DNA from: an uncultured Acidobacteriota bacterium
GTDB taxonomy: Bacteria; Actinomycetota; Acidimicrobiia; Spongiisociales; ZC4RG35
NCBI GenBank assembly: GCA_963789135.1
Contig: CAWBJJ010000008.1
Coordinates: forward strand, 15,720 to 79,719
Reading direction: 5' to 3'
DNA: 64,000 nt
Position numbers and translations under genes: made by a program
Notes under the pieces: model-generated
Told to the model about the DNA's origin: nothing
Databases searched by the model: none
Seen by the model: the letters and a program-made list of their open reading frames with translations, nothing else
Part shown: piece by piece, positions 21,417-59,732 of the stretch
How positions within the stretch are numbered: position 1 is the stretch's first letter
Layout: the number at the start of each line of letters is the position of its first letter

Positions 21417-21601
21417 CGTCGTCGCTCCTATCTCAGTGGCGAAGTTGGTATGTCACCGGAGAGTAGCCCTCATGCCGAGGGCGATTTTGGCTGCCTTGCT
21501 CGGTCTAGATCCCCTGATAGGCCCCCTAGGCCCTGCAACATTCGTCAATTGCAACCTCCGAGAATCAAGAAACCCCCTGTGTTACCAGGGGGTTTCTCTT
21601 G

Positions 21602-21676
21602 TGGGCCCTACTGGACTTGAACCAGTGACCTCTTGCGTGTCGAGCAAGCGCTCTAGCCAGGCTGAGCTAAGGGCCC
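21602..21676 (-). tRNA. tRNA-Val (anticodon GAC)
   Basis: GGGCCCT..CTTGC-TCGACAC-GCAAG..ACTGG-TTCAAGT-CCAGT-AGGGCCC-A. Confidence 0.85.
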
Positions 21677-21691
21677 GTGTTCCCTCCTCAG

Positions 21692-21762
21692 AGGCGACGA
21701 CCGGAATCGAACCGGTGTGACGGGTTTTGCAGACCCGCGCCTAACCACTCGGCCACGTCGCC
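21692..21762 (-). tRNA. tRNA-Cys (anticodon GCA)
   Basis: GGCGACG..CGGGT-CTGCAAA-ACCCG..ACCGG-TTCGATT-CCGGT-CGTCGCC-U (U73 discriminator typical of tRNA-Cys). Confidence 0.85.
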
Positions 21763-21796
21763 GGTACCGGACGACTCGACCTCGGTCCGTCGTCGG

Positions 21797-21870
21797 AGCG
21801 GAAGACGGGATTCGAACCCGCGACCTCAACCTTGGCAAGGTTGCGCTCTAGCCAACTGAGCTACTTCCGC
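21797..21870 (-). tRNA. tRNA-Gly (anticodon GCC)
   Basis: GCGGAAG..CAACC-TTGCCAA-GGTTG..GCGGG-TTCGAAT-CCCGT-CTTCCGC-U. Confidence 0.85.
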
Positions 21871-37687: not shown

Positions 37688-37697
37688 CCGTTGCTCC

Positions 37698-39251
<1,554 letters not shown>

Positions 39252-39302
39252 AAGAACGCAGTCTCTTCTGTCGGTGGTAGCCTGGATGGCTATGTTAGGG
39301 CA

Positions 39303-39318
39303 AAGAACTGCAGAACTT
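39303..39318. promoter_or_regulatory. candidate RamB-type operator in aceB-ramB divergent promoter region
   Basis: AAGAACTGCAGAACTT (direct AGAACT repeat) plus AAGAACGCAG at 39261-39270; resembles corynebacterial RamB site A(A/G)AACTTTGCAAA only loosely. Confidence 0.3.
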
Positions 39319-39335
39319 ATGCTTGGCGGCAAGTT

Positions 39336-42824: not shown

Positions 42825-44174
42825 TCAGCCCGCCAGGAAGAGCGCCGGCTCTTCCAGATTCTCGATCACCATGGCCATGAACCTCCTACCTTGGGCTCCG
42901 TCGATCACCCGGTGATCGTAGGAGAGCGAAAGCGGCATCAAGGGGGCGATGTCCAACTCGCCGTCGACCGCCACGACCTTCTCCTTGGCCCGTCCAATGG
43001 AGAGGATCGAGGTCGTCCCGTAAGGCACGATCGGGGTCCCGTGACCGCCGCCCACAGCACCGATGTTGGTGACCGTGAAGGTCTGGCCGCTCAGCTCGTC
43101 AGGAGCCAGCGATCGTGATTTGGCCCCATCCCCGAGACGTCGCACCTCGGCGGCCAACTCGAGCACGCCCTTGGAGTCGGCGTCGTCGATGACCGCCACC
43201 AAGAGCCCGTCGGGGGTATCGACGGCGATGCCGATGTCGTGAGAGGCGTGAACCACGAGCTCGTCACCGTCGATGGTGGCGTTGAACTCGGGGAATGCCA
43301 CGAGTGCCGGTATCACCGCCTTGATCACCAGCGCCTCGATCGGGATCTTCGAGTCGTGTCGGGCACCCAGGGCAGATCTGACTTCGAGGAGTCGGCTGGC
43401 GTTGACGTCGTCGAACGTGGTCACGTGAGGGATCTCCGCCCAGCTCTTCGCCATGTTGGCGGCGATGGTGCGGCGGAGCCGGGACATGGGCCGGCGCTCG
43501 TCTCCCACGGCCGCTGATTCGGGCTCGGGCTCCGGCTCGGATTCCAACTCTGGCTCCGGCTCCGGCTCGGGAACAGATTCAGGTCGCGCCTCGGGTTCGG
43601 GCTCGTGATCAGATTCAGGTTGCGCCTCGGGCTGCGCGCTCGGGAACAGATTCAGGTCGCGCCTTGGCCTCGGGCTCGGGCTTCGGGAGAAGCCGATGCC
43701 CCTTCGGCTGCCGCCAGGACGTCTTCGCGTGTGATCCGGCCGTCGGCACCGCTCGCGGTGACCGCAGCCAGGTCGATGCCCATTTCGCGGGCCAGCTTGC
43801 GCACCAGGGGCAGGGCCTTGACAGCCCCGGCATCTGTCGACACGGCCTCGGAACGATCGCCGAGCTCTTCGGCCTCCTCGCTCAGGGTTCCCACGATGGG
43901 GGCAGCGGAAGCCGTCGCCGGGAGCTTCGACCTCACCCGGCTCGCCGATCACCACCAGGACCGAGCCGACGGCAATCGTCTCCCCTTCGGCTCCTCCGTG
44001 ACGGAGCACGATCCCGGCATATGGAGAAGGGATCTCGACCACAGCCTTGTCGGTCTCCACCTCGACCACCGGTTGGTCGGCTTCGACCCGCTCCCCCTCG
44101 GGGATGAGCCAGCGCACTATCTCAGCCTCGGTCAAGCCCTCGCCGATGTCGGGCAGCCTGAATTCTTTGGGCAA
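42825..44174 (-). pseudogene. bkdC: branched-chain alpha-keto acid dehydrogenase E2 (dihydrolipoamide acyltransferase), three frameshifts in linker regions
   Basis: lipoyl domain (VETDKAVVEIPSPYAGIV) and catalytic domain (…HDIGIAVDTPDGL…SYDHRVIDGA) share one frame; peripheral subunit-binding domain [31 protein letters not shown] is in another (43652..43936); shifts near 43907-43915, 43668-43680, 43622-43631. Confidence 0.75.
43561..43670. repeat. three tandem ~36-37 bp repeats inside E2 linker coding region
   Basis: GAACAGATTCAGGTCGCGCCTCGG (43561), GATCAGATTCAGGTTGCGCCTCGG (43597), GAACAGATTCAGGTCGCGCCTTGG (43634); encode PEA(R/K)PESVPEP-type linker repeats; units 2 and 3 are 37 nt. Confidence 0.6.
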
Positions 44175-45152
44175 CTAGTCCTCCAACGTCTTCTCTGCCG
44201 CCTGCATGATCCGGTCGACGCTGGGAAGGTAATGACCCTCGGACCGCTTCAGGGGAAAGACAGTGTCCCACCCGGTCACCCGGCGCACCGGAGCCAACAG
44301 CGAATAGAAGGCCTGCTCCTGGATCGAGGCCGCGATCTCGCCGCCAAGGCCACCGGTGCGGGGAGCCTCATGGATGACCACCACCCTCCCCGTTTTCTGG
44401 GCCGAGGCCACGATTCCGGTCATGTCCAGCGGGGAAAGCGTCTGCACGTCGAGGACCTCCACCGAAACCCCACCGTCTTCGAGCACAGCGGCTGCTGCGC
44501 GGGTCTCCTTCATCATCGCCCCCCATGAGATCAGGGTGATGTCCTTGCCCTGCCGCTCCACGCGGACCGGCCCGATCTCGGTCGTGTAGTAGATGTCCGG
44601 GACCTCTTCCTTGACCGCCCGATAGAGCCGGATCGGCTCCAGGAACACCACCGGGTCGGGGTCTTCGATGGCGGCGAGCAGCAGGCCACGGGCGTTGTGA
44701 GGAGTAGAAGGGACGACCACCTTGAGCCCGGGGATGTGGGAGTAGATGGCCTCGGTCGACTCGGAGTGATGCTCGGCGGCGCCGATCCCGCCACCAAAGG
44801 GGATCCGGATCACCAACGGCGCGGTGAATCGATGGTCCGAGCGGTTACGGATCCGAGCGACGTGGTTGATGATCTGGTCGTAGGCCGGATAGGAGAAACC
44901 GAGGAACTGGATCTCGGCGACCGGTCGCAGCCCGGCAATCGCCATCCCGAAAGCTGCGCCGACGATGCCCGACTCGGCGACCGGGGTGTCATACACCCGC
45001 GACGCGCCGTATTTCTCCATGAGCCCGTCGGTGATCCGGAAGACCCCACCGGTGCGCCCGATGTCCTCGCCGAGGAGCACCACCCTCTGATCGGATTCGA
45101 GAGCGGTGTCCAGGGCTCCGTTCAGAGCCTGGGCCAGGGTGACCACGCTCAT
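44175..45152 (-). CDS. bkdB: alpha-keto acid dehydrogenase E1 component beta subunit
   Basis: MSVVTLAQALNGALD...transketolase-like pyrimidine-binding and C-terminal domains; ATGA overlap with E1 alpha. Confidence 0.9.
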   Translation of the reverse strand: MSVVTLAQALNGALDTALESDQRVVLLGEDIGRTGGVFRITDGLMEKYGASRVYDTPVAESGIVGAAFGMAIAGLRPVAEIQFLGFSYPAYDQIINHVARIRNRSDHRFTAPLVIRIPFGGGIGAAEHHSESTEAIYSHIPGLKVVVPSTPHNARGLLLAAIEDPDPVVFLEPIRLYRAVKEEVPDIYYTTEIGPVRVERQGKDITLISWGAMMKETRAAAAVLEDGGVSVEVLDVQTLSPLDMTGIVASAQKTGRVVVIHEAPRTGGLGGEIAASIQEQAFYSLLAPVRRVTGWDTVFPLKRSEGHYLPSVDRIMQAAEKTLED

Positions 45153-46168
45153 GTCGAGGCCTCCCCGAGTTGGGAGCGCAGGGGCGTGGTGGGCTCGGAA
45201 TACATCCGGGCGAACATCTCGTCGATCGTCGGCTGCGGGTAGGCCTCGGCCCGAGCCACAGCCTCTTCGATGACCGCGGAAGCCTTCTGCTCCAGCTCCT
45301 CCTGCCATTCGGGGGTCCAGCCCCTCGCCTTCTCGAGGAGGACCCGGATCCGGATCATTGGGTCCTTCTCCCGCCACTGCTCGGCTATCGACTCGTCGCG
45401 GTATCGGCCAGGGTCGTCCGAAGTGGTGTGCGGGCCCAGGCGATAGGTGACCGCTTCGATCAGGGCCGGCCCCCCGCCCTTCCGCGCCGACTCCACAGCC
45501 TCGCGCACCGCGACCAGGACCGCGGCCACGTCGTTGCCGTCCACCTCGACCCCGGTCATCCCATAGCTGTCCGCCTTGCCTGCGATCGATGACGATCGGG
45601 TCTGCTCCGAGCGGGGATAGGAGATGGCGAACTGGTTGTTCTGGCAGAAGAAGACGGTGGGGGTGTCGAATACCGCGGCGAAGTTCATCGCCTCGTGGAA
45701 GTCGCCCTCCGAGGTGGCCCCGTCGCCAAAGGAGGTCAGAGCGACGCGGTCGCTGCCCTGGAGGCGCTCTGCCCACGCCAGCCCGACGGCATGGATCATG
45801 TGCCCGCCTACGGTGATGGACGGGGGAAGGACGTTGACCCCTTCTGGGGCCTTGCCACCCCGCTCGTCACCGGTCCGCCCTGCGATCAGCAGCTCCCAGG
45901 GATACCCGGCCCGCCACATGAGCGCAGCGTCGCGGTAGGTCCCAGCGACCCAGTCGTCGGCGCGAAGGGCCGCCGCCGCCCCGATCTGGGCGGCTTCCTG
46001 GCCTTCGAACGGGGCGTAGGTGGCAAGCCGGCCCTGGCGTTGCATCGCCATGCACTTCTGGTCGTAGGTGCGGGCCTCGACCATGTCGGCGTAGAGCCCG
46101 CGCATCTCCTCGAGGGTTATCGGGAGTCGATCCCGAACCGACCCGTCAGGATTGATCAGGCTGAACAT
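45149..46168 (-). CDS. bkdA: alpha-keto acid dehydrogenase E1 component alpha subunit (TPP-dependent)
   Basis: ...SFGDGATSEGDFHEAMNFAAV... TPP-binding GDG-x25-N motif. Confidence 0.9.
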   Translation of the reverse strand: MFSLINPDGSVRDRLPITLEEMRGLYADMVEARTYDQKCMAMQRQGRLATYAPFEGQEAAQIGAAAALRADDWVAGTYRDAALMWRAGYPWELLIAGRTGDERGGKAPEGVNVLPPSITVGGHMIHAVGLAWAERLQGSDRVALTSFGDGATSEGDFHEAMNFAAVFDTPTVFFCQNNQFAISYPRSEQTRSSSIAGKADSYGMTGVEVDGNDVAAVLVAVREAVESARKGGGPALIEAVTYRLGPHTTSDDPGRYRDESIAEQWREKDPMIRIRVLLEKARGWTPEWQEELEQKASAVIEEAVARAEAYPQPTIDEMFARMYSEPTTPLRSQLGEAST

Positions 46169-47097: not shown

Positions 47098-49374
47098 TCA
47101 GACCTCGACCTGCTGCCGGGCCAGCACCTCTTCCAACTCTTCGACCGTCATCAGCACCTCGCGTGCCTTGCTCCCCTGCGACGGACCGACGACGCCCTGG
47201 CGCTCCAACATGTCCATCATCCGGCCTGCCCGGGCGAACCCGATGCGGAGCTTGCGCTGCAGCATCGATGTGGAGCCCAACTGGCTGCGCACCACCATCT
47301 CCATCGCCTCCCGGGCGAGGGCGGCGTCCTCGGCATCTTCTTCTTCGACCTGGGCGGCCGCCGCCGAAGCGGCAGCCACCTCGAGTACTTCCTGGTCCTT
47401 GTAGACCGCGTCCTGCTGCTTACGGACCCACTCGACGATGGCCTGGACCTCGCTCTCCCGGACCCAGGCCCCCTGGATCCGCTGGGCGCGGGGCTCCTTG
47501 GCGGTGACCACCAGCATGTCGCCCATCCCCACAAGCTTCTCGGCACCGGACCCGTCGAGGATCACCCTGCTGTCGGTCTGCGAGGCGACGCTGAATGCGA
47601 GGCGGCTCGGGATGTTGGCCTTGATCACACCGGTGATCACGTCGACAGATGGGCGCTGGGTGGCGATCACGAGGTGGATCCCGACGGCGCGGGCCATCTG
47701 GGCGATCCGGACCACCGACTCCTCGACCTCCCGCCCGGCAACCATCATCAGGTCGTTGAGCTCGTCGATGATGATCACGATGTAGGGGAAGCGATCGAAG
47801 CCATCGGGGTCGAGCCCGCCGATATCGAGCTTCTCCCGGTATCCCTCGATGTCGCGGACCTTGGCGTCGGCCAGCAGGTCATAGCGGCGGTCCATTTCGG
47901 CGACCGCCCACTTCAGGGCGTCGTTGGCCTTCTTGGGGTTGGTGATGACCTTGGTGAGGAGATGGGGAACCCCGTTGTACTGGCCCAGCTCCACTCGCTT
48001 CGGGTCGACCATGATCAGCCGCACGTCATCGGGATGGGTGCGCATCAACAGGGACGTGACGATCGAGTTGATGCACGACGACTTGCCGGCCCCGGTGGCC
48101 CCGGCGATGAGGACATGGGGCAGCTCGGAGAGGTTGAGCAGCTTGGAGTCCCCGGAGATGTCCATGCCCAGGCCCACGGTCAAGGGATGGGCCGGGATCG
48201 CCGCCTCCGGACTGGAGAGGATGTCGCCCAGTGAGACCAGCCTCCGCTTGTTGTTGGGAACTTCGACTCCGATCGCCGACTTCCCGGGGATGGGAACCAG
48301 GAGACGGACGTCTGGCGTGGCCAACGCGTAGGCGATGTCGTGGGACAGGCTCGACACTCGATTCACCTTGACTCCGGGCGCCAGTTCCACCTCGTATCTG
48401 GTCACGGTGGGGCCGGGGACGATCTTGGTCAGGGCGGCGTCGACACCGTGCTGGGTCAGGGTCTCCTCCAGCTGACGGGCGGTTTCCTCGAGCGAGCGTC
48501 GGTTCACCTCTCCGCCGGTGCCGGCATCGAGGAGGCTGAGCGGCGGGAGCCGGTAGCCGGTGGTGGTGAGATCTACGACCACAGGCTTCTTCACCGGCAG
48601 CGCCGCAGTGGCCGGCTTATCTGTCTTGGGACGGGACGGCTTGGGACGCTCGTGCCGGCCCTTGGCCGGGCCGTCCACCGTCATCGGGCCGATCGCGACA
48701 TGAGCCGGTGCCTTGGGCTTGGGCGTTGGTGAAGTCAATGCCTTCGCAGCCTCCCGGAACGATCGGAACGCGCCACTCACTCCAAGGAACAACTCACGAA
48801 CGCTGGTGTGGGTGGCAACGAGGACCCCCATCGCCATCATCGACACCAGGACGACAAACGCACCCCAGTGCCCGAGGACGCGGCGCAACGGGAACGCGAG
48901 CAACGATCCGACGGCGCCGCCCCTCTCCTTGACCAGTTCGATGTTGGGCATGAGGGCGACCGCCCCGGTGAGCAGATGGAACAACGCCAGTGAGCCGATG
49001 AAGGCGGCGATGCTCCCCGCGACCAGGCGACGTGCGCCTTCCCGGGGCTTTCCGGTGATCAGTGCGAGCCCGACGCCGATCAGGGCAAGCGGCACCGCAT
49101 ATCGCCAGACGCCAAAGAGGAACAAGCTCGCAGTCTCGATGCCTTCTCCAAACGGGCCCGCCAGATCGACGAACGCCAGGATGATCAAGATGGCGATGAC
49201 TATGAGGAACAGGCCCCAGACGTCATCGGTCTGGCGACCCAGAGTTGTCCGAACGTATTCACGACCCGCCACCAGCTTCTGGCGGAACGTGCCCTTCTTC
49301 GGCTTGGTCTTTTTCGCTGTGGACACCCGTCTCCGCCCGGAGGAACCCTTCCGGGTGGGTGTCCTTGTTGGCAT
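47098..49374 (-). CDS. ftsK: DNA translocase FtsK/SpoIIIE
   Basis: N-terminal TM segments, linker, motor domain with Walker A GATGAGKS and Walker B IIIDE, C-terminal gamma wHTH; 758 aa. Confidence 0.9.
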   Translation of the reverse strand: MPTRTPTRKGSSGRRRVSTAKKTKPKKGTFRQKLVAGREYVRTTLGRQTDDVWGLFLIVIAILIILAFVDLAGPFGEGIETASLFLFGVWRYAVPLALIGVGLALITGKPREGARRLVAGSIAAFIGSLALFHLLTGAVALMPNIELVKERGGAVGSLLAFPLRRVLGHWGAFVVLVSMMAMGVLVATHTSVRELFLGVSGAFRSFREAAKALTSPTPKPKAPAHVAIGPMTVDGPAKGRHERPKPSRPKTDKPATAALPVKKPVVVDLTTTGYRLPPLSLLDAGTGGEVNRRSLEETARQLEETLTQHGVDAALTKIVPGPTVTRYEVELAPGVKVNRVSSLSHDIAYALATPDVRLLVPIPGKSAIGVEVPNNKRRLVSLGDILSSPEAAIPAHPLTVGLGMDISGDSKLLNLSELPHVLIAGATGAGKSSCINSIVTSLLMRTHPDDVRLIMVDPKRVELGQYNGVPHLLTKVITNPKKANDALKWAVAEMDRRYDLLADAKVRDIEGYREKLDIGGLDPDGFDRFPYIVIIIDELNDLMMVAGREVEESVVRIAQMARAVGIHLVIATQRPSVDVITGVIKANIPSRLAFSVASQTDSRVILDGSGAEKLVGMGDMLVVTAKEPRAQRIQGAWVRESEVQAIVEWVRKQQDAVYKDQEVLEVAAASAAAAQVEEEDAEDAALAREAMEMVVRSQLGSTSMLQRKLRIGFARAGRMMDMLERQGVVGPSQGSKAREVLMTVEELEEVLARQQVEV

Positions 49375-49436: not shown

Positions 49437-49967
49437 TCAGGGGCGGAGAATGGTGATCCCGCCTCCCGCTGCGATCACCGACGAAGCCAGGTGCCCGGTC
49501 CCGCCCGGCCCGTCACCGCCCTTCCCGTCCCAGAGGAATATGCCCTGCAGCCTGCCTCCTGCCTGCCTCGCCTCGGTCAGCATCCTCTCCGAGTTGAGGG
49601 TGTGCGGGTCATCCGCTCCGAACATGTCAGGGCTGGGGCCGACCACCTCGACCCGTTGGTCGTTGATGACCATGTAGAACGACTTCACCCATTCCTCACC
49701 GGCGAAGCGGACGGATTCCTCGAGGAATTCCTCCTGACCTCGGGGCAGGAAAGCGGAGAGCCTGCGATCGCTCTTCAGCCACTCCTCGGCGAATAGGAGG
49801 TCTCCCCCGCAGGCGAGCCCCGTGATAGCGCTCACGTCAGGGCCATCGATGAGCCAGATGGCGTCGGCGATGTCCCGCCTCACCTGATGCACTCGCTCCG
49901 GCGGGAAGCGCGGGGGTTGACGGCCGGGAGCATCGACCATGTGCCCGGCAAATAGGACCACCTCCAC
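49437..49967 (-). CDS. LOG/SLOG-like Rossmann-fold protein (predicted nucleotide-binding/processing)
   Basis: VVLFAGHMVD strand + ITGLACGGDLLFAEE Gly-rich loop + C-terminal DGPGGTGHL resembling LOG-family PGGxGT motif; assignment by pattern only. Confidence 0.4.
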   Translation of the reverse strand: MEVVLFAGHMVDAPGRQPPRFPPERVHQVRRDIADAIWLIDGPDVSAITGLACGGDLLFAEEWLKSDRRLSAFLPRGQEEFLEESVRFAGEEWVKSFYMVINDQRVEVVGPSPDMFGADDPHTLNSERMLTEARQAGGRLQGIFLWDGKGGDGPGGTGHLASSVIAAGGGITILRP

Positions 49968-49987
49968 TTCCGAATCGTACGGGTGTT

Positions 49988-51562
49988 TCAGTGGCGAGCG
50001 GCCTTGTGACGCCCGTACTCCTCGCGGATCGCCTTGATCGTGATCCCCTCGTTGGCCTGGTAGGTCGCCGACGGGTCATCGAGCCGGCGCATCTTGGCGT
50101 CCCCGGCGTGGTGCACCGCCATCAGCTGCCATGCCTGGTTGAAGACAGGGCTTCCCGAGCTGCCGCCCTCGGTCGGGGCGGTGTAATGCACCCGAAAGCT
50201 CTCCGCGTCATAGGCGAGGAGGTCGTTGCCCCGAATTGAGAACTTGAGCCCTCCCCCGGCCGGGTGGCCGATCACATAGACGTACGCCCCTTCGGTGACC
50301 GGCTGGGGGACCTGGGCGACCTCTATAGGCTGGGTGATGGCCGCCTCGGGCCCCGGGAAGCTGAGGAACGTGACGTCGCAGGTCTCGGGCGGCGAACTCC
50401 AGACGCACTCCATCCCCGTGAGCACGAGATCGGCCCCGTCGACCGACTTGGTCACATCGAAAACGGCCTGGGCCTCGCCAGGGAGCAACTTGCCCACTCC
50501 GGGCTCGGGGCTGCAGACGTGGGCATTGGTGATGAGGATCGGCGACTCCCCGAGCTCGGGATCGAGCAAGGAGCCGCGGACCAGGAAGCCGGTCCCCCAG
50601 GGCTCACCGGAAGCGTCGGTGATCTTGGCCACCGACTCGGCGCACTGCAGCCCTCTCAGCAGGTGGTTGTAGCCCACAGGCAGTGCGGTCCCGAAGATCT
50701 TCTCCAACTGGCCCGGCGAAGTGGGCAACTCGACCTGCGCTGCCCCTCCCAGCTGAAGCTGGCTGTCGGCCATGGCCACCAGGATCGGGTGATGGGGCTC
50801 GAGCTCCCAGATGTCGACCAACTGGCGACGGAGGCTCCGCATCTCGAACGAGGTGACACTGCGACTGGTCGAGAGCTGTTCGGCCGCCGCCACCGCTTCC
50901 TTCTCGGCACCCTCGTCACCGAGAGCGACCAGCGCTTCGATCTCGGTGCTCCGGTCCCACACCGAGCGCAGTTCGGGGTCCTTGTCGCGGGCCAGGCCCA
51001 GGACCTCTCTGGTCAAGGTTGTTGTGTCGACCGCGTCCGACAGTTCGATGCCGTCGCGCTTCGCCCGGCAGGTCAATGCGAGGAGGTTCACGCCATGCCA
51101 GGCGGGGTCGGTGCCACCCTCGTAGCCGGCGCGATAAGCATCGATAGCGCCTACCAAGTCCTCGGAACGGCCCCCGTCGACGAAACGCTCCTTTCGGAGC
51201 CGGCCCATCAGCCCGAGCACCTCGCCCTTCGCCGTGTCGTCGTCGATCGACAGCAAGGACTCGGCGAGCGCCAGGTCGGCGGCGTGAAACGCCCCGATCT
51301 CGATCAACGCCTGGCAATAGCGGCGGCGGGCACCGGCGCCGACCGCCCCCACCGCCAGTGCGGCCTCCCCGACGTCGATGACGTGGTTGAACTCACGCCT
51401 CTTCTCGAGCAAGGCCATGACCTCACCAGCATCTTCCGGGGTGACCGATCCTTCCCACACCTTGGCCCGGACGTCGTCGACCGCGGCCGAGAGGTCTTCG
51501 GGCTTGCCCGAATCGAGGCTGGCTTGAAGCCGCTCACCCAGCGGCGAGTCGAGAAGACCCAT
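49988..51562 (-). CDS. TPR-like helical N-domain fused to trypsin-like (S1) serine peptidase
   Basis: C-terminal ...GTGFLVRG...ITNAHV (His)...GADLVL (Asp)...GGSSGSPVF (Ser); ~290-aa alpha-helical repeat N-terminus. Confidence 0.7.
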   Translation of the reverse strand: MGLLDSPLGERLQASLDSGKPEDLSAAVDDVRAKVWEGSVTPEDAGEVMALLEKRREFNHVIDVGEAALAVGAVGAGARRRYCQALIEIGAFHAADLALAESLLSIDDDTAKGEVLGLMGRLRKERFVDGGRSEDLVGAIDAYRAGYEGGTDPAWHGVNLLALTCRAKRDGIELSDAVDTTTLTREVLGLARDKDPELRSVWDRSTEIEALVALGDEGAEKEAVAAAEQLSTSRSVTSFEMRSLRRQLVDIWELEPHHPILVAMADSQLQLGGAAQVELPTSPGQLEKIFGTALPVGYNHLLRGLQCAESVAKITDASGEPWGTGFLVRGSLLDPELGESPILITNAHVCSPEPGVGKLLPGEAQAVFDVTKSVDGADLVLTGMECVWSSPPETCDVTFLSFPGPEAAITQPIEVAQVPQPVTEGAYVYVIGHPAGGGLKFSIRGNDLLAYDAESFRVHYTAPTEGGSSGSPVFNQAWQLMAVHHAGDAKMRRLDDPSATYQANEGITIKAIREEYGRHKAARH

Positions 51563-51567
51563 GCGTG

Positions 51568-52536
51568 TCAGATACCGAGGCCCTGGCGGACCGCTGCCTG
51601 CACCACCTGCTGCCGGAAGTACTTCCCGGACGGATGCCGGAATGCACCTCCGTTCGACACCACCTCGTCGACCACCTCAGGCTGCCGCTTGCGCTTGTAG
51701 TCGTTGGCGAGAAGCGGGTCGGCGGCGCATACCGGGTCGAGGCGGTCGACCACATTGACCCAGCGCGGAAGCTCGTCGGGAAAGCCGTCGTCCTTCGACC
51801 ATTCCGGCTTCAGGTTGTGCTGGACCTCGGACAGCCCCAGTGGTGTGCCGAGCGTGATCAGCATGTCGACCTTCTTGGTGTCGGCCACGCGCTTCAGGCA
51901 GTCATAGGCGATCACCGAACCAAGACTGTGGGCGACCACGACGTGGGGGCTGCCGTCGATCTCGCCGAGGTCGCCGACGAAGCGCTTCCGGACCTCGTCG
52001 CGGACCTTGAAATTGGCCCCGGCTCGCGGTGAGTGGCTGGAGTTGAACAGGTAGTGGTGGACGTCACGGAGCAGCACCCGCATCATCGGCCTCTTGATGA
52101 ACCAGGGAAGCGGCACCGCCTCCAGTGCCGAGGCCGCGGCCACGCGGGCTTGGGCCGCGACCGGAGGGTCTTGACCGCCGGCCTCGACAGGATGGGTCGC
52201 CTGCTCGATGTCGTCGGGGTGGTCGAGGTCGAGGTCCGAGATCATCGACTCGATGAAGGCCTTCTCCTCACCGCTGGCCGAGTCGATGTAGGACTCGTCG
52301 ACCTCAGTCAGGGCACCGGGCTCGACTCCCTCGTATTCGATCGACTCCTGAGCGCCAGGGGCATCGGTGGCCGCCGCGTACATCACATCCGCCCAATACA
52401 CCATGGATGAAGTCACCCCGTAGACGTCGAGATCGACACCGTCACCACCGTCGGCGAGATCCCGCTTCCAGGAGCTGAGCAAGCGAGCCGGCGAAGGCTG
52501 GTTCATGATGCCGTGAACGAAGGTGATGTGGCCCAT
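51568..52536 (-). CDS. alpha/beta-hydrolase fold esterase/lipase (DUF676/PGAP1-like)
   Basis: ITFVHGIMN (oxyanion HG), VVVAHSLGS (GxSxG nucleophile elbow), ITLGTPLG; long acidic insert; GAGGAGG SD. Confidence 0.65.
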   Translation of the reverse strand: MGHITFVHGIMNQPSPARLLSSWKRDLADGGDGVDLDVYGVTSSMVYWADVMYAAATDAPGAQESIEYEGVEPGALTEVDESYIDSASGEEKAFIESMISDLDLDHPDDIEQATHPVEAGGQDPPVAAQARVAAASALEAVPLPWFIKRPMMRVLLRDVHHYLFNSSHSPRAGANFKVRDEVRKRFVGDLGEIDGSPHVVVAHSLGSVIAYDCLKRVADTKKVDMLITLGTPLGLSEVQHNLKPEWSKDDGFPDELPRWVNVVDRLDPVCAADPLLANDYKRKRQPEVVDEVVSNGGAFRHPSGKYFRQQVVQAAVRQGLGI

Positions 52537-52551
52537 CGAGTCCCTCCTCTT

Positions 52552-53526
52552 CTACGTCGAGCCTAGGTCGACGCCCTCGTACTGATACCCGCTGTTGTCA
52601 CCTTCGACGTCCATCTCGATGGTCCCGGTCGGGATCCGGGCACATCCCCCGTCACTGTCGCCGCCCGCCGAGAAGTTCTCGATCACATAGGCGACCAGTG
52701 GTGTCTCATCGGGGCTCGGGCTGCCCCCGGTCGAGCTGAACCCGTCCGGAAAGTCGTCAGAGCAGTCGACGGTCACCGGGGAAGAGAGTTGAGGCCCGGG
52801 AACGTCGATCTGGACGGAGCTTGCGTCTGCCGTCCCATCGATCCTCGCCCCCTCGGTCTCACTGAGCTCGAACAACAACGCGAAGCTGTGGCGGGCTCCC
52901 TGGTATCCGAGGCTGGTGGGCACCGGCGGCTGGATCCATCGGTCCGGCGGGTAGCCCTGGCGCTCGGCTTCAGCGGTGACGAAGTACTCGTGATTCTGCA
53001 CGCCCAACTCGACGGCGAACCCCTCATCGCCCCCGGCGACGCATGTCGCACTGCCGCCCACCGGGATCGGGTCGAGGGAGCACACGTCTTCGCCGAGATC
53101 CGAACCGTCGAACCCTGAGATCTCCAGGCCGACCACGGTCCCGTTGAGCTGGTCGAGGTTCTCGACGGTGAACTGGACCCAGTAGCGGGGGCTTCCGAGC
53201 TGGGGAACGGACTCCGCCGAGAACCCCGCCGGGAGGAATGGGCCCCCGGCCGACTCACCTACCGCCACAGAGATGAGCACCGACCCCGCGCCTCCTGTGA
53301 AGTCGAACACCGCGGCAGCGATCACCGGGGGCAGGGTTGCCGGGGGCGAGGAGTCGGTGGTGTTCGTCGCCTCCGACGTCGTGGTCTCCTGGCCGGCAGT
53401 GGTCGTCGTCGCCGGATCGACGCTGGTGGTGGTGCTTGCTCCGGTTGTGGTGCTCGCTTCACTCTCGCCGGCGCAGGCGGCGAGTGCCAGGCACAGGGCC
53501 AGGGTCGATGCAATGGTGCGCTTCAT
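52552..53526 (-). CDS. secreted lipoprotein with Thr-rich linker and beta-rich domain
   Basis: MKRTIASTLALCLALAACAG lipobox (LAAC); TTTGASTTTSVDPATTTTAGQETTTSEATNTT linker; GAGGAG SD. Confidence 0.6.
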   Translation of the reverse strand: MKRTIASTLALCLALAACAGESEASTTTGASTTTSVDPATTTTAGQETTTSEATNTTDSSPPATLPPVIAAAVFDFTGGAGSVLISVAVGESAGGPFLPAGFSAESVPQLGSPRYWVQFTVENLDQLNGTVVGLEISGFDGSDLGEDVCSLDPIPVGGSATCVAGGDEGFAVELGVQNHEYFVTAEAERQGYPPDRWIQPPVPTSLGYQGARHSFALLFELSETEGARIDGTADASSVQIDVPGPQLSSPVTVDCSDDFPDGFSSTGGSPSPDETPLVAYVIENFSAGGDSDGGCARIPTGTIEMDVEGDNSGYQYEGVDLGST

Positions 53527-53575
53527 CCCGTACTCCTCACCCCGGAGTTGGGGGGCCACCACCCTACGCGGTCAC

Positions 53576-55637
53576 TTACGGCGCAGGGCACACGACGGTG
53601 TCGATCGGGTCGCCGGGGAGGCTGTTCGCCTCCTCCAGATACGCGTCCGCGGTGTCGCTCAGTCCCAGACCGCACTCGTAGACGAAAGCCAGCGCCATGA
53701 AGAATTCGCGCTTGCTGTCGAGGTCCGGGGCGATCTCGGAGGCAGTCTCGAACTCGGCTATGGCAGCCTCGTTGTCCTCGTCGAGTAAGTGGACGGAGCC
53801 GAGGGTGGCGTGGGCGTCCGCGGCGACATCCAACAACCTGGGCTCGGACTCGATCACCGGCATCAGTGCATCGACAAGCGTCACGAACCTCTCGCCGCCG
53901 CTCGACACCATGGTTGTTCAGGCAGAGATTGATCCGTGCCATCTCGAGCCGCGATCTCTCCGGGAGAAACGAGAACTCGGGGGCCTCCATGAGGGCCACC
54001 TCGTCGAATCCGGCGATGGCGGCTTCGAGCCCTTCGACGTCCCCGGCGCCAGTTCCGCCGCAGGCCGCTCCCTTGGCGCGCTGAAATCCGACCTCCGCCA
54101 GTCCAAAGTGGGCCCGGGCGTAGTCGGGCTCCAGCTCGAGGGCTCGTTGGAAATACCCCTCGGCATCGTCGAGATCCTCCTGCAGGCCGCTCACGTTTCC
54201 CAGGAGATTGAAGACAACTTCCTTGCCATTGCTGTCGACCCTCGACCCGGGCCAGTCGATCGACGCTTGAACGAAGCGCTCCTCAGCCTGGTCGAAGTCA
54301 CCGAGCTGATAGAAGCTGAGCCCGATCGCGAGCTCGGTCAACGCCGTGATCTTGGGTCCCAGGCGCTGGGCGGCGATGCTCAGAGTCCCGGGGTCTGTGC
54401 TGAGAATGGTCTGGTCGTCCATTGCATAGGCGCCGGCGAGCTCCTTGGCGCCGGTCAGACCGCGGTCCGAGATGAAGAACTCGGTGGTGAGCAAGGGCGC
54501 GCCGTTCTCGGTGTCCAGGGTGCCGTAGACGACCACGTCGGCGGCGACTCTCGAGGCGAGCTCGGCCGCTTCCTGGGCCCGTTCCTCTGGGGTGTCCCCC
54601 GCCAGAGGCCCTACCTCGTCAGGACCGGCCACCGCCACCTCGACGTCGGTCTCTTCGGCCACCGCCTCGTCGATTTGGCGGTACAAGGTCTCGGAGACAC
54701 TCGAGGCCGACTCGCCAGTCGACGCGAACTCGGCAACCGCGATGTTGAAATCACCCCCGATTGGCCCCAGTGTCACCACGACGTTGGCTGTGGCCGCCGA
54801 CTCGGCCCCATCCTCGTCCCGAACGGTGAAGCCAAACGAGTCCGGTCCTCGATAACGGGATGGGCCGGTGTAGGAGATCAGGCCACCACCCAGATCGGCG
54901 ATGCTGCCGCCATGCGTCGACTCGTTGTCGACCGTGACCGACAACTCGCCGGAAGCGTCATCCTCGACCCATTCGAGAAGATCGATCTCGGTGGGAATGT
55001 CCCCGATCGCGGTCACCGCCTCCGGAGTGATGGATGGTGGCCGATTGCCCCGAACTACGAGCGCCACACCGAGCACCGCGATTATCAGGACTGCCGCGCC
55101 CAGCCAGGCCCACAGCGGGAACCCGTGCCATCGGCGACGCCAGCCTCCGATGTGGTCGATCAGGTTGTCGACGTCGTCGTCGAATCGATCCGGTCGCACC
55201 GTGACCGCCTGACGGCCAGGCAGGGTCTGCAGCGGCTCGGGCAGTTGGTCGGCGGTGGGCAGGTCGGCGTCTCCGACCAGGACCGGGATCACCTGAACCC
55301 GCCCCATCTCCAGCGCGATGGCGATCTCCCTACGCACCCAGTCTTCAGGGTTGTCGAGACGGCGCTTGCCCCCGGCGTCGGCGGCTAGCCAGTCGGGGCC
55401 GATGATCGCCAGCAGGACATCACTCCTGGCGAGTGCCTCATCCAGAGTGGTGGCGAAGTCCTGACCGGGAGGGATGGTCTCGTGATCAAGCCAGATCGCC
55501 TTGCTCGCGTAGTAATCGGTGAGCGCGGCATGAAGCCGGCCCGCATGTCCTCCCGCATCACTCCGGCGATAGCTGATGAAGATGTCCGGGCTGGCCAGAC
55601 CGCGTTTGATCGAGGCGATCAGTCCAATGCAGAGAAT
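53576..55637 (-). pseudogene. TIR domain - TM - cadherin/Ig-like - TPR repeat protein (one frameshift near C-terminus; no canonical start codon)
   Basis: TIR: SPDIFISYRRSDAGGHAGRLHAALTDYY...LLAIIGPDWLAADAGGKRRLDNPEDWVRREIAIALEMGRVQVIPVLV; TM FPLWAWLGAAVLIIAVLGVALVV; Ig-like LSVTVDNESTHGGSIADLGGGLISYTGP...DSFGFTVRDEDG...VVVTLGP; TPR ...YFQRALELEPDYARAHFGLAEVGF; C-terminal 111 aa continue in frame of 53576..53911 (shift ~53900-53912). Confidence 0.65.
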
Positions 55638-57177
55638 CTACCGCCCGGTCGCCGTCGGCTCCCCGACCGCCAGTTCGAGGCACGCTTTCACTGCGTCGTC
55701 TGCGCGCTCATCATCAGGCACCTCGATGATCGTCGGGCGACCGCCGGCCGAGAGCGAGCCCAGCGTGCCTTCGAGGAGCTCGTCGTCGGTCGTGGCGTCC
55801 ACCAGGAATACCGCTCTGTCGAGGGCGCCCTCTCCGGCCAGCATCTCGATCTCGACGAGGCATCCCTGGTTGTCCGGCCCGAAATCGCGCAGGTCCATGA
55901 GCACCGAATGGCTCATACGCAGCAGCTCGACGACCGCCAACCGCCAGGTGTCGTCGAAGCAGAAGAACTCTTCGACCCGATATCTCGCGTCCGGGTCCTG
56001 GCGCACGACGAGCGATTCGCGCCGCTGCTCGAGAGTGGCCGGCGAATCCACGAAGAGGCGGGGCAGGTCACCGCTGAGGAACGTGAGGAACTCGTCCGGC
56101 TCCACAGAAGCGACCGCGAGGTCCGGGCCACCGATCATCCGCACCGGGCCCAGGTAGCGCCATTGGGCGCTGATCCGGTCCAGGAGTCGCTGGGCGCCCC
56201 GTCGAGGAGAGAACACCCGGAGAACGAGCAGGGCTGCCGGCGCCGAGGGTTTCCGATGGACCACCCGGTAGAGGACCAGGGCCAGGGCGCCCATGGCGAT
56301 GAAGACCGCCATGCCGGCAGCGAAGGCCCAGCCGTCGGTTGGCCTGATGCCGGCCGAGGAGTCGATCGCGAAGACGAAGAACACCGACCCGAGCAGGAGC
56401 ATTTGGTCCGAGAACCCGCTGCCGCGGTACCAGGCGGCGAGAAGCCGGCCGACGAGTACCGCCAGGACCAGCGAGCCTACGAACCCGGCGGCGACACCGA
56501 ACAGGAGCAGATTGGCGTCGCCCCAGTCGATGATCGGGCCTGACGCTGTGATCAACAGGTAGATGGCCTGGGCCCCGGCGATCGCGGCCATCACCGTGCC
56601 GAGGACCAGGGGGCCAACACCCCGGAGGGGCCGCGTCAGGAAGGCGACGACCGCCAACGTCGGGATCAAACTCCACACCCACAGCTCGAACGGCAAGAAC
56701 GGGCCGCTTCCCGCGAACCAACCAGCCGCCATCAGCAAGAGGACGTATATCCCGATGGAGGCCAGCAACCAGCGCCGGGCCCCGCCGGTGACGATCCAGG
56801 TCCCGATCACCGCCGGCCAGGCATAGATCACCGTGAAGACCGTCACTCGGTAGATGGAGAGAGCGATGTCGTTCCAGGTGAGCAGGAGGATGGAAAAGCA
56901 GATGCCTGTGACCACCGCGACCGCGATCACGACCCCGACATTGACCCACACCCCGCGGGGCCTGGTGTCCTGCGGTGACCGCGGGCTTCGACAGGGGTAT
57001 AGGCGAAGTTTGCGAGGCGGCCGGGGCGGCATCGGCCGTTGCTCCACGCCGTTCCATGAGGCGCCGGATCGAGCTCCGGTAGCGACGGAGCAAGAGCCAT
57101 GTGATGGGCAGGGCGAGCACCGCGGCCACCAGGGCGAGGATGAGGGGGATCCCGCCCAGGAACGCCATATCGCTCAT
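55638..57177 (-). pseudogene. polytopic (~12 TM) membrane protein with ~190-aa cytoplasmic C-terminal domain, one frameshift
   Basis: ATG 57177 with GGAGG SD: MSDMAFLGGIPLILALVAAVLALPITWLLL... in one frame, continues ...VWVNVGVVIAVAVVTGICFSILLL... in frame of 57047 (shift ~56970-56990 in GGCCCCGCGGGG); ends at TAG 55638-55640 that is in frame with the downstream TIR domain. Confidence 0.55.
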
Positions 57178-57204: not shown

Positions 57205-58839
57205 CTAGAGCTCCATCACCACCGGGACGATCACCGGCTTGCGCGCGGTTTCCGCGCGGATCACCTTGCCCACCGCGGACCGAACCGTCTTCTGCAGCTC
57301 TCCAATGTCACTGCGCCCCGCAGCGTGCTCTTCGATCGCTTGGCGCACTGCTTCCGCCGACTTCTCCAGGACGGCGGTCGGGTCGTCCATGAGGCCGTGG
57401 CTGTCGAGGTCGGGGCCGTAGAGGATCTCGCCGGTGTCGTGGTCGATCCCCACGGTGACCACGACCACGCCCTCATCCGCGAGATGGGAGCGGTCGCGGA
57501 GCACCGCAGACTGAACGTCCCCTACAGCCGATCCATCGAGATACACGTAGCCGGCGGGGACAGCCCGGCGCTCCACCATCGTCTTCTTCCCATCGAGGAT
57601 CACCCGGTCGCCGTCTTCGAGGACGTCGACGTGGCGAATGCCCATCGTCCTCGCCAGCTCGGCATGGGCGTGGAGGTGCCGGTACTCGCCATGTACAGGC
57701 ACGAAAGCCCGGGGCCGCAACAGGTTGAGGAAGGTCAGCAACTCCTCGCGGTTGGCGTGACCTGAGACGTGGACGTCGGCGTTCTGGCCGTGGACCACCC
57801 GCGCGCCGCGTCGCATCAGGTTGGAGATCACCTTGGAAACTGCGCTCTCGTTGCCGGGTATCGGCTTTGCCGAAATGAGGACGGTGTCTTCGGGGCCGAG
57901 CTCGACGAACCGGTGACGCCCCTGGGACATGAGGGAGAGAGCAGCGAAGGGCTCGCCCTGGCTTCCGGTGGTGATCATCATCTGCTTGTCCAGCGGCAGC
58001 TTCTCGAGCTCGCTGATGTCGACCAGCGACTTCTCGGGGACCGTGAGAAGCCCCAGCTCCTTGGCCAGCACCGTGTTGCGCTGCATCGAGCGGCCGAAGA
58101 AGGCGATCTTCCGACCCGAGGCGATGCCTGCGTCGACGATCTGCTGGACCCGGTGGATATGAGAGGAGAAACAGGCGGCGAACACCCTCCCCGGGGCGTC
58201 ACGCACGATGTCGGCAATGGGACGGCCAACCGAGCTCTCCGATGGCTCGAATCCTGGCTTCTCGGCGTTGGTCGAATCGGCGAGCAGCAGGCGAACCCCG
58301 CGGCGGCCCAGGGTGGCGAAGGCAGGCAGGTCGGTTGGCACCTGATCGATCGGAGTCGGGTCGAGCTTGAAGTCCCCGGAATGGACGATCACGCCCTCCG
58401 GAGTGTCGAGGGCCACGGCAGCGGCCTCGGGGACCGAGTGGCTGACAGGGATCAGCTGAAAGCGGAACGGCCCATGGTCAGTCCAATTCTTGAATCCAAC
58501 GACACGGAGGTCGGCCTCCACGCCCAGCTCGTCGATCCTCCCCCTGGCAAGCTCCATGCTGAGCCTGGTCCCATAGACCGGCACCGGAACCGCCTTGAGG
58601 AAGTAGGCGAGAGCGCCGGTGTGGTCCTCGTGGCCATGGGTGATGATCACGCACTCGACGTCCTTGGAGCGGGCCGCGAGCCAGGACCAGTCGGGGAATA
58701 CGAGATCGACGCCGAGCATGTCCTCTTCGGGAAACATGAGGCCGCAGTCGATCAATGCGATCTTCCCGGCGATCTCCACGGCGGCGCAGTTGCGACCGAT
58801 CTCCCCCAGGCCCCCGAGAAACGTGACGGAGACGCTCAC
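57205..58839 (-). CDS. rnj: ribonuclease J
   Basis: metallo-beta-lactamase HxHxDH (ITHGHEDHTGAL), beta-CASP and C-terminal domains; GTG start overlapping dapA stop (GTGA). Confidence 0.85.
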   Translation of the reverse strand: MSVSVTFLGGLGEIGRNCAAVEIAGKIALIDCGLMFPEEDMLGVDLVFPDWSWLAARSKDVECVIITHGHEDHTGALAYFLKAVPVPVYGTRLSMELARGRIDELGVEADLRVVGFKNWTDHGPFRFQLIPVSHSVPEAAAVALDTPEGVIVHSGDFKLDPTPIDQVPTDLPAFATLGRRGVRLLLADSTNAEKPGFEPSESSVGRPIADIVRDAPGRVFAACFSSHIHRVQQIVDAGIASGRKIAFFGRSMQRNTVLAKELGLLTVPEKSLVDISELEKLPLDKQMMITTGSQGEPFAALSLMSQGRHRFVELGPEDTVLISAKPIPGNESAVSKVISNLMRRGARVVHGQNADVHVSGHANREELLTFLNLLRPRAFVPVHGEYRHLHAHAELARTMGIRHVDVLEDGDRVILDGKKTMVERRAVPAGYVYLDGSAVGDVQSAVLRDRSHLADEGVVVVTVGIDHDTGEILYGPDLDSHGLMDDPTAVLEKSAEAVRQAIEEHAAGRSDIGELQKTVRSAVGKVIRAETARKPVIVPVVMEL

Positions 58840-59732
58840 AGGCCTTGCAGAGCCCCAACCGCCTTTTCGATGGCTATCAGTGTCTCCTCGGAGGCATCGA
58901 CCAATGGCAGGCGAACCGAGCCCACCGTTTCCCAGAGCCGGTTCATCGCACCCTTCACCGGGGTCGGGTTGGTCTCGAGGAAACACGCCTCACACAAGGG
59001 CAGCAACTCGTGATGGATGCTTCGGGCAATGTCCATCTCACCGGCCAGGGCGGCTTCGACCATGGCCGCCACCCGCCGCCCGGCGAGGTGGCTGATCACC
59101 GAGACCACGCCGATCGCACCGACAGCCATCATCGGCCAGGTGTGCGAATCCTGGCCGCTGTACACCGGCAGGGCAGGGATTCGGTTCACGGTCTGGCTGG
59201 TGAAGTCGACATCCATCACCGCGTCTTTCACAGCAACGATGTTCTCGTGCCGACTGAGCCGGTCCAGGGTCTCGAGCTCGATGAGACGGCCGGTCCGATT
59301 GGGGATGTTGTAGAGCAGCACCGGGACCCCGACGTCTGCGATCGCCTCGAAGTGGGCGACCAGGCCCGACTGGCCCGGCTTGTTGTAATAGGGGGTCACG
59401 GCGAGGGCTCCATGGCAACCGATCTCGCCGGCGCGCCTGGTCAATTCGATCGACTCGGCGGTGTCGTAGCTACCGGTCCCGGCGACCACCATCGTCTTCT
59501 TCCCGGAGACCGAGTCGAGGACCGTCTTGTACAGCGCGAGCTTCTCGGCGGCGCTCAGTGTCGGAGACTCGCCGGTGGTACCGGTGACCACCAGGGTGTC
59601 CGAGCCCTGATCTGCCAGGTATCGCGCCAGGCGCCATGCCTTCTCGTGATCGACCGCGCCGGAATCGGTGAACGGCGTGATCATCGCGGTGGCGACGTGG
59701 CCGAAGGGGGCTTTGGAGTCGAGGCTCACCAC
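58836..59732 (-). CDS. dapA: 4-hydroxy-tetrahydrodipicolinate synthase
   Basis: ...TAMITPF...VVTGTTGESPTLS...; Schiff-base lysine region; 298 aa. Confidence 0.9.
   Translation of the reverse strand: MVSLDSKAPFGHVATAMITPFTDSGAVDHEKAWRLARYLADQGSDTLVVTGTTGESPTLSAAEKLALYKTVLDSVSGKKTMVVAGTGSYDTAESIELTRRAGEIGCHGALAVTPYYNKPGQSGLVAHFEAIADVGVPVLLYNIPNRTGRLIELETLDRLSRHENIVAVKDAVMDVDFTSQTVNRIPALPVYSGQDSHTWPMMAVGAIGVVSVISHLAGRRVAAMVEAALAGEMDIARSIHHELLPLCEACFLETNPTPVKGAMNRLWETVGSVRLPLVDASEETLIAIEKAVGALQGL

Follow-up and report, generated by a model that had tools for sequence, protein, structure and literature searches.

A putative TPR-S-centred, Thoeris-like TIR signalling cassette between ftsK and rnj of an uncultured acidimicrobiial bacterium

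Composition of the six-gene cassette

The 64,000-nucleotide stretch of contig CAWBJJ010000008.1 (assembly GCA_963789135.1; hereafter the window) belongs to an uncultured bacterium placed by GTDB in the class Acidimicrobiia. In this window, the interval between the housekeeping genes ftsK and rnj is filled by six co-directional open reading frames (ORFs) on the minus strand, which are spaced by 0-62 nt and are named A to F in the order of transcription (Table 1). Together they encode a multi-transmembrane protein (A), a membrane-anchored TIR protein (B), a lipoprotein (C), an alpha/beta-hydrolase (D), a fusion of TPR-S with a trypsin-like protease (E) and a small protein of predicted SLOG fold (F). 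The ORF coordinates and the Pfam matches of the flanking genes agree with a first-pass annotation, made from the nucleotide sequence without database searches, that had placed a six-gene minus-strand block at this site. Its gene set also holds, except that the disrupted reading frames of A and B and the missing start codon of B, described below, had gone unmentioned.

The product of gene B matches the Pfam families TIR_2 (E = 1.8e-15), Big_9 (E = 9.4e-9), Cadherin_5 (E = 1.1e-6) and TPR_2 (E = 4.1e-12), and its single transmembrane (TM) helix comprises residues 177-195. Both the TIR assignment made at first pass and the order proposed there, TIR, TM helix, cadherin/immunoglobulin (Ig)-like domain and TPR, are therefore borne out. 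The nearest relatives of the TIR domain among sequences of solved structure are the TIR domains of SARM1 (E = 8e-6), and the motif DWVRRE of gene B aligns with DWVHKE of SARM1, which contains the catalytic residue E642. The catalytic glutamate is thus present, as the earlier suggestion of a SARM1-like catalytic helix required. Because a positively charged patch precedes the TM helix and the Ig-like domain follows it, the TIR domain is predicted to be cytoplasmic, while the Ig-like and TPR sensor regions are predicted to be extracytoplasmic.

No ATG, GTG or TTG codon is found in gene B from the stop codon (TAG) of gene A to the first strand of the TIR domain (55640-55580, minus strand). This start-less lead of 18 codons is common to seven genomes, which are the window and those of the related loci L001 (3266-3330), L003, L005, L007, L010 and L011. 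Its codon 1 is ATT or GTT, codon 4 is ATC or ATT, and codon 6 is CTG, with TTG only in L005. The arrangement suggests near-cognate AUU/AUC initiation that may keep the level of the TIR protein low. Read-through of the stop codon, by which A would be fused to B, was rejected, as L001 has two in-frame stop codons at this position (TGA CGG TAG). Since gene B has no canonical start codon, gene callers cut its TIR domain off, and the L001 product as annotated has no TIR match in Pfam. A second, short TIR gene occurs in L005, L008, L009 and L011; ATC or ATT are its sole start options, and GGAGAGG precedes it in L005.

Near 53920-53885 (minus strand), gene B also contains a +1 frame offset, which is shared with the sister genome L003 (6060-6391) and is absent from five other orthologues. 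The tail in the shifted frame is 97 codons long (53869-53579) and ends at a stop codon (53578-53576). Between the window and L003, the tail differs at 10, 3 and 31 sites in codon positions 1, 2 and 3, respectively, and has 24 synonymous versus 13 non-synonymous codon differences, compared with 5/33 and 2/37 in the other two frames. That the differences are mostly synonymous and at third positions argues that the tail is still translated, and by these counts purifying selection acts on it in the shifted frame. The tail may be made either from an internal ATG, as the second part of a split gene, or by frameshifting, which could be programmed. A sequencing error was rejected as the source of the offset, because L003 has it too and because of the apparent purifying selection on the tail.

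Gene E encodes a TPR-S domain (PF20308; residues 58-163, E = 8.5e-13, 49.2 bits versus a gathering score of 27.6) followed by a trypsin-like protease domain (PF13365; E = 2.2e-16, 61.3 bits, also above the gathering score). The trypsin-like protease of the first-pass annotation is thus retained, while the TPR named there as a generic one is TPR-S. The family has 218 homologues across phyla, and all the full-length ones among those listed combine TPR-S with Trypsin_2. The catalytic triad, H348, D396 and S469, is invariant in 28 sequences. Invariant polar residues are likewise found in the TPR-S domain (R121, K124, W155, H156, N159, W202, E209, R246 and Q247), a constellation that appears unusual for a scaffolding TPR and is as expected of a small-molecule pocket.

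For gene D, all Pfam matches are below their cut-offs (E = 4.8e-4 to 0.068), with 21.3 bits versus 26.3 for Abhydrolase_6, 16.4 versus 21 for LCAT and 13.3 versus 24.3 for PGAP1; a match to the thioesterase 7e3z has E = 0.0013. Alignment of 19 orthologues reveals a conserved HGI oxyanion region, an HS(L/M)G nucleophile elbow (AHSLG here), the Asp of a DPV motif and the His of an RH motif. The hydrolase call made at first pass is retained, its PGAP1-like type as a tentative one. The same alignment shows a variable acidic insertion at about residues 55-135. Gene D is 70-75% identical to its orthologues in L001 and L002.

Gene F has no match at E <= 0.1 to any Pfam, NCBIfam or PADLOC family, including YpsA/DUF1273, LOG, STALD, TPALS and LSDAT, and its profile yielded only a chance match among the sequences of the PDB. 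The AlphaFold2 (AF2) model of F has a mean predicted local distance difference test score of 90.3, and its best structural matches belong to the SLOG superfamily. The fold comparison figure is 16.6 for YpsA, 10.6-12.5 for ShosA/DprA, about 10 for LOG/TM1055, 9.4 each for the MHR of TRPM2 and a MoCo carrier protein, and 8.8 for the SLOG domain of ThsA bound to 3'cADPR. As defined for SLOG, the modelled fold is Rossmann-like, and Gly-rich loops follow its strand 2 and its penultimate strand. The LOG/SLOG-like label given at first pass is therefore right at the level of the modelled fold, although no sequence profile detects F. Four motifs are conserved among the relatives of F: FxGHMxDxPxRxxPRFP, ACGGDLLF, SVxFAG..W and LWDGxGGDGPGGT. 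Homologues number 415 in the word-indexed database, and a profile of F matched 5,137 cluster representatives at E <= 1e-3 when it was compared with every such representative. The F domain appears to be a large, unnamed sensor-type module that has no Pfam match.

The remaining two genes encode membrane-associated proteins. The lipoprotein call for gene C rests on a lipobox (LALAAC) and a Thr-rich linker, both as noted before; only low-complexity matches were obtained for it from Pfam and PADLOC/NCBIfam, and its orthologues are confined to the acidimicrobiial cassette (10 loci). An extra gene for a 295-aa, Thr-rich lipoprotein-like protein lies in the interval between F and ftsK of L003 (10564-11451, minus strand of the locus) and is absent from the window. 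Gene A has no family match in Pfam and encodes about nine hydrophobic helices, instead of the roughly 12 that had been counted before, followed by a 190-residue alpha/beta domain. Its ATG is at 57177, and the first ~75 codons are in another frame than the rest, in which the TM helices and C-terminal domain are read from ~56950 to the TAG at 55640-55638. The switch lies at ~56990-56940 (minus strand), in C4/G4 runs near 56960 (GGCCCCGCGGGG), and it is specific to the window, as the orthologues in L001 and L003 keep a single frame. Either an assembly indel or a recently acquired lesion may account for it. The public annotation of the product (P0121, 464 aa) begins at an internal start.

Table 1. 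Genes of the cassette, flanking genes, and peptidoglycan hydrolase genes of related loci. Coordinates are those of the window or, for the last four rows, of the locus named.
Feature	Description	Coordinates	Strand	Evidence
Gene A	Multi-TM protein with cytoplasmic Rossmann-like C-terminal domain	55638..57177	minus	~9 TM helices
Gene B	TIR, one TM helix, Big_9/cadherin-like Ig, alpha/beta domain and TPR	53576..55637	minus	Pfam, TM prediction
Gene C	Thr-rich lipoprotein (MKRTIASTLALCLALAAC...)	52552..53526	minus	Sequence features
Gene D	322-aa alpha/beta-hydrolase, directly upstream of gene E	51568..52536	minus	Motifs, sub-threshold Pfam
Gene E	TPR-S (residues ~50-300) fused to Trypsin_2 (323-483)	49988..51562	minus	Pfam
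Gene F	176-aa free-standing protein of predicted SLOG fold (YpsA-like)	49437..49967	minus	AF2 model
rnj	Flank, RNase J	57205-58986	minus	Pfam RNase_J_b_CASP 4.8e-46
dapA	Flank, upstream of rnj	58836-59732	minus	Pfam DHDPS 1.6e-82
ftsK	Flank	47098-49374	minus	Pfam FtsK_SpoIIIE 6.1e-59, FtsK_alpha, FtsK_gamma
L002	Peptidoglycan hydrolase gene	6593-7417
L083	Peptidoglycan hydrolase gene	5945-6910
L086	Peptidoglycan hydrolase gene	5815-6885
L087	Peptidoglycan hydrolase gene	9086-9937

Recurrence of the cassette and of its modules

The neighbourhood recurs in unrelated contexts and phyla, a point that the first-pass annotation had proposed to check. Look-ups by exact sequence of the window proteins E and P0001 matched no recorded contig, but close relatives are indexed. 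L001, whose F is 70% identical to that of the window, contains all six genes in the same order plus an FHA-TIR gene, and has other flanks; L002 contains a D-E-F core together with genes for a TIR-multi-TM protein, a free TPR-S protein and an M15 peptidoglycan peptidase. The full cassette is found at acidimicrobiial loci only. Its position between rnj and ftsK is shared only with the sister genome L003 (83% nucleotide identity), so that the housekeeping setting described before is confirmed for these two genomes. As the same cassette has different flanks across genomes, it moves as a unit.

Relatives of F were surveyed with one genome per species, in which at least 523 were confirmed in 600 candidate stretches. 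Among the matches listed, they occur in Acidimicrobiia, Alpha-, Beta- and Deltaproteobacteria, Cyanobacteria, Acidobacteria, Chloroflexi, Binatia and one archaeal metagenome-assembled genome (MAG), and core modules are also found on megaplasmids. Outside Acidimicrobiia, F is mostly a domain of larger proteins, as judged by Pfam. These include TPR-S + F (~650 aa), SLATT_1 (with or without DUF4231) + TPR-S + F (~1,100 aa), Pkinase + TPR-S + F, AAA_35 + TIR_2 + TPR-S + F, TPR-S + F + a sigma-54 AAA+ activator, F + TPR-S + patatin, and F + TIR_2 (proteins P0327, P0345, P0405, P0443 and P0428; loci L023, L044 and L055).

Iterated hidden Markov models built from segments of these fusions were run on 81 non-redundant F loci. 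At 31 of the 81 loci TPR-S is fused to F, and at a further 26 the two are no more than 3 kb apart; TIR is found within 10 kb at 46, and SLATT is fused or adjacent at 12. All three of TIR, TPR-S and F are present together at 37 loci, and TIR accompanies E in L083-L085. The genes that follow F on a Rhizobium plasmid encode DUF4231 (SLATT-like), DUF3380, patatin and DUF4071 (TPR-S-like) proteins. The partner genes found elsewhere are typical cell-killing effectors, namely SLATT, patatin, CHAT and peptidoglycan hydrolases. Because the TPR-S/F pair is constant while the attached module varies among a pore, phospholipase, kinase, transcription activator and protease, the pair behaves like a sensor or regulatory module, and it is for this reason that we place F with the TPR-S domain of E in a putative two-part receptor. 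The uniform architecture of the E family, with its invariant triad and TPR-S polar residues, is in keeping with such a receptor. From these architectures, TPR-S appears to be the organising element of the systems.

Gene E also has a recurrent partner in gene D. In the distant genomes of L084, L085 and L086 too, a D-like hydrolase gene lies directly upstream of the TPR-S-trypsin gene. The D+E pairs of L084 (411-8707) and L085 (418-8695) are divergent to genes for an nSTAND1-WD40 NTPase (~1,370 aa) and a SIR2_2/TIR_2 protein (465 aa), and each locus looks like a composite STAND-TIR-protease conflict locus; that of L086 adjoins Macro, PRTase and M15 peptidase genes. In L083, the TPR-S-trypsin protease gene adjoins a TIR + 'Gasdermin_protease' gene and an amidase gene, while a single giant protein next to F in L059 combines an LCAT/PGAP1-like hydrolase with a CHAT protease and TPR-S. 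In Bacteroidota and further MAGs, D+E pairs are likewise neighbours of TIR genes. The TPR-S/TIR loci repeatedly contain or adjoin genes for peptidoglycan hydrolases (Peptidase_M15_4 with PG_binding or SH3, Amidase_2 and DUF3380; Table 1), which hints at a lytic output. The genes that accompany D+E or F elsewhere are thus, by their predicted functions, lytic or cell-killing.

Proposed signalling mechanism and alternative explanations

Systems with a TPR core have been predicted before. According to the summary in a 2023 preprint (10.1101/2023.05.26.542521), 78 operons with a TPR core are listed in the data of Burroughs and Aravind (2020, J Bacteriol), among them TIR-Tpr, YpsA-Tpr and patatin-Tpr forms as well as LSDAT, calcineurin and caspase ones, and a YpsA branch has been placed in nucleotide-centred conflict systems either as a sensor or as a signal generator (PMC6459960). 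Thoeris types V-XI were recently validated (Yirmiya et al., bioRxiv 2025, 10.64898/2025.12.03.692087). Type VIII consists of the TIR protein ThsB and of ThsI, a CMP hydrolase with TPR that is activated by canonical cyclic ADP-ribose (cADPR); its TPR is presumed to perceive the signal, a prediction credited to Burroughs and Aravind (2020). According to the same work, type VII combines TIR with SLATT, the effectors of types VII and VIII sometimes lie in one operon, and type IV combines TIR with a caspase-like protease, the protease ThsE, whose signal is N7-cADPR (Rousset et al., 2025). The word trypsin does not occur in the main text of that preprint, nor do trypsin, peptidase or YpsA in the part of its supplementary text that is available.

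The statement of the first-pass annotation that the gene composition matches no described defence system cannot be upheld as far as the secondary summaries of the Burroughs and Aravind (2020) catalogue go, since TPR-S-centred TIR, YpsA, patatin and caspase assemblies are listed there and Thoeris type VIII has been validated. The cassette is best read as a variant of these predicted TPR-S-centred TIR systems, which have been validated in part as type VIII, and is not categorically new. Like them it has a TPR-S core with TIR and a YpsA-like SLOG protein; compared through those summaries, it differs in that TPR-S is fused to trypsin and strictly paired with an upstream alpha/beta-hydrolase, in that the TIR protein is membrane receptor-like, and in that a multi-TM protein and a lipoprotein are included. 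The traits that appear to be the variant's own are hence the membrane-receptor TIR, the trypsin and alpha/beta-hydrolase output and the free-standing YpsA-like SLOG partner. The Thoeris logic invoked earlier is retained in the TIR and SLOG modules; the SLOG protein here, however, is free-standing and, as the fusions suggest, pairs with the TPR-S of the protease. As in Thoeris, the block has a TIR domain with the catalytic Glu, in an operon with a putative ligand-sensing effector (E, F).

Several characterized systems resemble parts of the cassette. Like type VIII, it has a TIR gene adjoining the gene of an effector in which an Aravind-type TPR, as presumed sensor, is joined to an enzymatic output, but that output is a serine protease with hydrolase D in place of a MilB/DNPH1-like CMP hydrolase, and the free-standing SLOG protein F is added. 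As in type IV, a TIR-made nucleotide is proposed to activate a cell-killing protease, which here has a trypsin rather than a caspase fold and TPR-S/SLOG as its sensor. ThsA of Thoeris type I (SIR2-SLOG) shares with F the SLOG fold that binds 3'cADPR in ThsA; F, in contrast, is coupled to TPR-S instead of being fused to an effector and is detected by no Pfam SLOG model. YpsA of B. subtilis (PDB 2NX2) gives the highest fold comparison figure for F, yet it is only 11% identical, and F has no DUF1273 match and no gpsB/cell-division context. A further parallel lies in the Hachiman, AVAST and Lamassu pairs, where the hydrolase encoded upstream of a trypsin-like protease with a fused sensor can be a gated proenzyme (HamM-type), opened via cleavage of insertions (PMC12799240). 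Gene D likewise lies directly upstream of such a protease gene and has a variable insertion, but it encodes a lipase/esterase-like alpha/beta-hydrolase and not a metallo-beta-lactamase nuclease, and its pairing with E is known here from gene order. The 'hydrolase' of Thoeris type XI, which is found on an actinobacterial scaffold, was rejected as a match for D because the type XI effector is a HIT hydrolase.

Building on the observed domain identities, catalytic residues, gene-set recurrence and fusions, we propose that the cassette is probably a Thoeris-like, TPR-S-centred TIR signalling system that would kill or arrest the cell on activation (abortive infection). The membrane-anchored B, triggered via its ectodomain or another input and possibly together with lipoprotein C, would use its SARM1-type Glu to turn NAD+ into a signal derived from ADP-ribose. 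This signal would be bound by a two-part receptor consisting of the TPR-S domain of E and the free-standing F, and ligand binding would activate the trypsin domain of E. The protease may then cut cellular targets, strip the acidic insertion from D to give an active lipase or esterase, or both; such activation of D is proposed because of the gated proenzyme hydrolases described above (PMC12799240). Protein A, with its cytoplasmic domain of nucleotide-binding type, could serve as a lineage-specific accessory membrane effector or sensor, and C as a membrane accessory.

Several points weigh against this proposal. The un-gating of D by E is an analogy. The invariant polar residues of F (H9, D12, R16, R20, C53, D56 and S85) would suit an enzyme as well as a sensor, and a search of phages found no F relatives in phage genomes. 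Neither TPR-S nor TIR is present at 12 of the 81 F loci, and D+E pairs without F exist. No PADLOC or NCBIfam system model is satisfied by the proteins of the block. Metabolic and housekeeping genes surround the cassette, its base composition is native and the window is not a defence island. With two of the six genes (A and B) frame-disrupted in this genome, the copy may be impaired.

Within the proposal, the role of F is the least certain point, as F may be an enzyme instead of a receptor. F might be a nucleotide N-glycosidase or processing enzyme of the LOG/YpsA type, with TPR-S alone as sensor; it would then act on the TIR product, by conversion or degradation, and so set a threshold or supply the actual ligand of TPR-S, or it would be an effector that depletes nucleotides as the CMP-hydrolase domain of ThsI does. 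We consider this possible but doubtful. The density of invariant polar residues in F speaks for it, as do the pocket-like invariant residues that the TPR-S of E has of its own, the D+E+TIR sets that lack F, and the position of F C-terminal to TPR-S in fusions, ThsI likewise combining a TPR with a CMP-hydrolase domain in one order or the other. TPR-S/F, however, is joined to regulatory outputs (sigma-54 AAA+ and kinase) and to separate effectors (patatin and SLATT), beside which a depleting effector would be redundant; SLOG is a ligand sensor in Thoeris type I, and F has no counterpart of the catalytic glutamate in the PGGxGTxxE motif of LOG. The role of the TIR protein can be questioned in a similar way. 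It could be an NAD+-depleting effector and no signal generator, in which case TPR-S/F and the ectodomain would sense something else, such as peptides or envelope damage, and the protease, hydrolase and TIR would be parallel killing arms. Such a role is consistent with the SARM1 NADases being the closest relatives of solved structure, with the all-in-one AAA_35-TIR-TPR-S-F protein, and with the loci where D+E is joined to a STAND NTPase and SIR2/TIR proteins, since TIR is normally an effector there. We judge it unlikely, as TIR is encoded by a separate gene beside that of the TPR-S protein, like in the validated signalling types VII and VIII, and as both the SLOG fold and the pocket-like TPR-S favour a nucleotide ligand that diffuses.

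The cassette could also have no antiviral role and instead be a native envelope-surveillance or cell-fate pathway of Acidimicrobiia, leading to dormancy or lysis, in which the B ectodomain and C sense wall or environmental cues. Housekeeping flanks, native composition at third codon positions and the shared locus of the sister genome would fit such a pathway, and so would the membrane or extracytoplasmic nature of three of the six products, the 70-80% identity of D and E across Acidimicrobiia and the peptidoglycan hydrolases that recur nearby. The contexts of the cassette differ among the other genomes, however, its core modules are scattered over many phyla, an archaeal MAG and megaplasmids, and the partners are classic conflict-system effectors, so we give this explanation only a small chance. 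Less probable still is that the cassette in this genome is a decaying, non-functional remnant, to which the frame change of gene A, seen neither in L003 nor in L001, and the +1 offset and missing canonical start of gene B could point. Against this, the start-less arrangement of B is kept in seven genomes, the offset of B is present in L003 with its tail apparently under purifying selection (10/3/31; 24 versus 13), genes D, E and F are undamaged and keep every catalytic or invariant residue, and the shift of gene A falls in homopolymer runs and might stem from faulty assembly.

Taken literally as 'Toll-like', the signalling system that we favour would run from an Ig/TPR receptor and lipoprotein, via a TIR-made and possibly new nucleotide, to a hitherto unnoticed receptor of two proteins, TPR-S plus a new SLOG family (>5,000 clusters), and on to a protease-to-lipase zymogen cascade, with the TIR protein throttled by conserved AUU/AUC starts and, in one lineage, by the +1 offset; that every part of this holds seems improbable to us. 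If the proposal is true, it would extend the Thoeris repertoire by an output of protease and lipase type and by a two-part TPR-S/SLOG receptor, and outside-in TIR signalling, which is rare in bacteria, would gain an example in a TIR protein whose sensor is extracytoplasmic. The D+E pair, kept from Acidimicrobiia to Bacteroidota, offers a clear candidate for a second class of proenzyme effectors gated by proteases. The SLOG family of F, with 5,137 cluster representatives undetected by Pfam, NCBIfam and PADLOC, would be provided with a functional context. The odd start and the frame offset of B explain why its TIR domain is missed by automatic annotation and the system stays hidden from TIR-centred surveys.

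Genomic setting of the cassette

The best PADLOC/NCBIfam matches of the block proteins are partial and weak, namely ThsB1 (E = 8.8e-6, 23 bits) and ThcB4 (37 bits versus a cut-off of 220), and A, C, D and F have no match in these searches. The G+C content of the window is ~66%, with no compositional break across the block region, and the G+C content at third codon positions (GC3) is 0.79-0.87 in the block genes versus 0.76-0.89 in the flanks. The comparison of composition and codon usage with the flanking genes, proposed at first pass for a block thought to be inserted, thus sets nothing apart, and neither base composition nor GC3 gives any sign of recent transfer. The cassette in this lineage is old enough to have acquired native GC3.

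An Rfam scan of the window found no tRNA or other Rfam element at the block. The sole matches are four tRNA genes at 19179-21870 on the minus strand (Val-CAC; Val-GAC, Cys-GCA and Gly-GCC), and their distance from the block means that it is no tRNA-linked island. The metabolic stretches past ftsK (36410-39422 and 42825-46168), which contain no defence genes, encode isocitrate lyase and malate synthase of the glyoxylate shunt and a 2-oxoacid dehydrogenase E1alpha/E1beta/E2 cluster.

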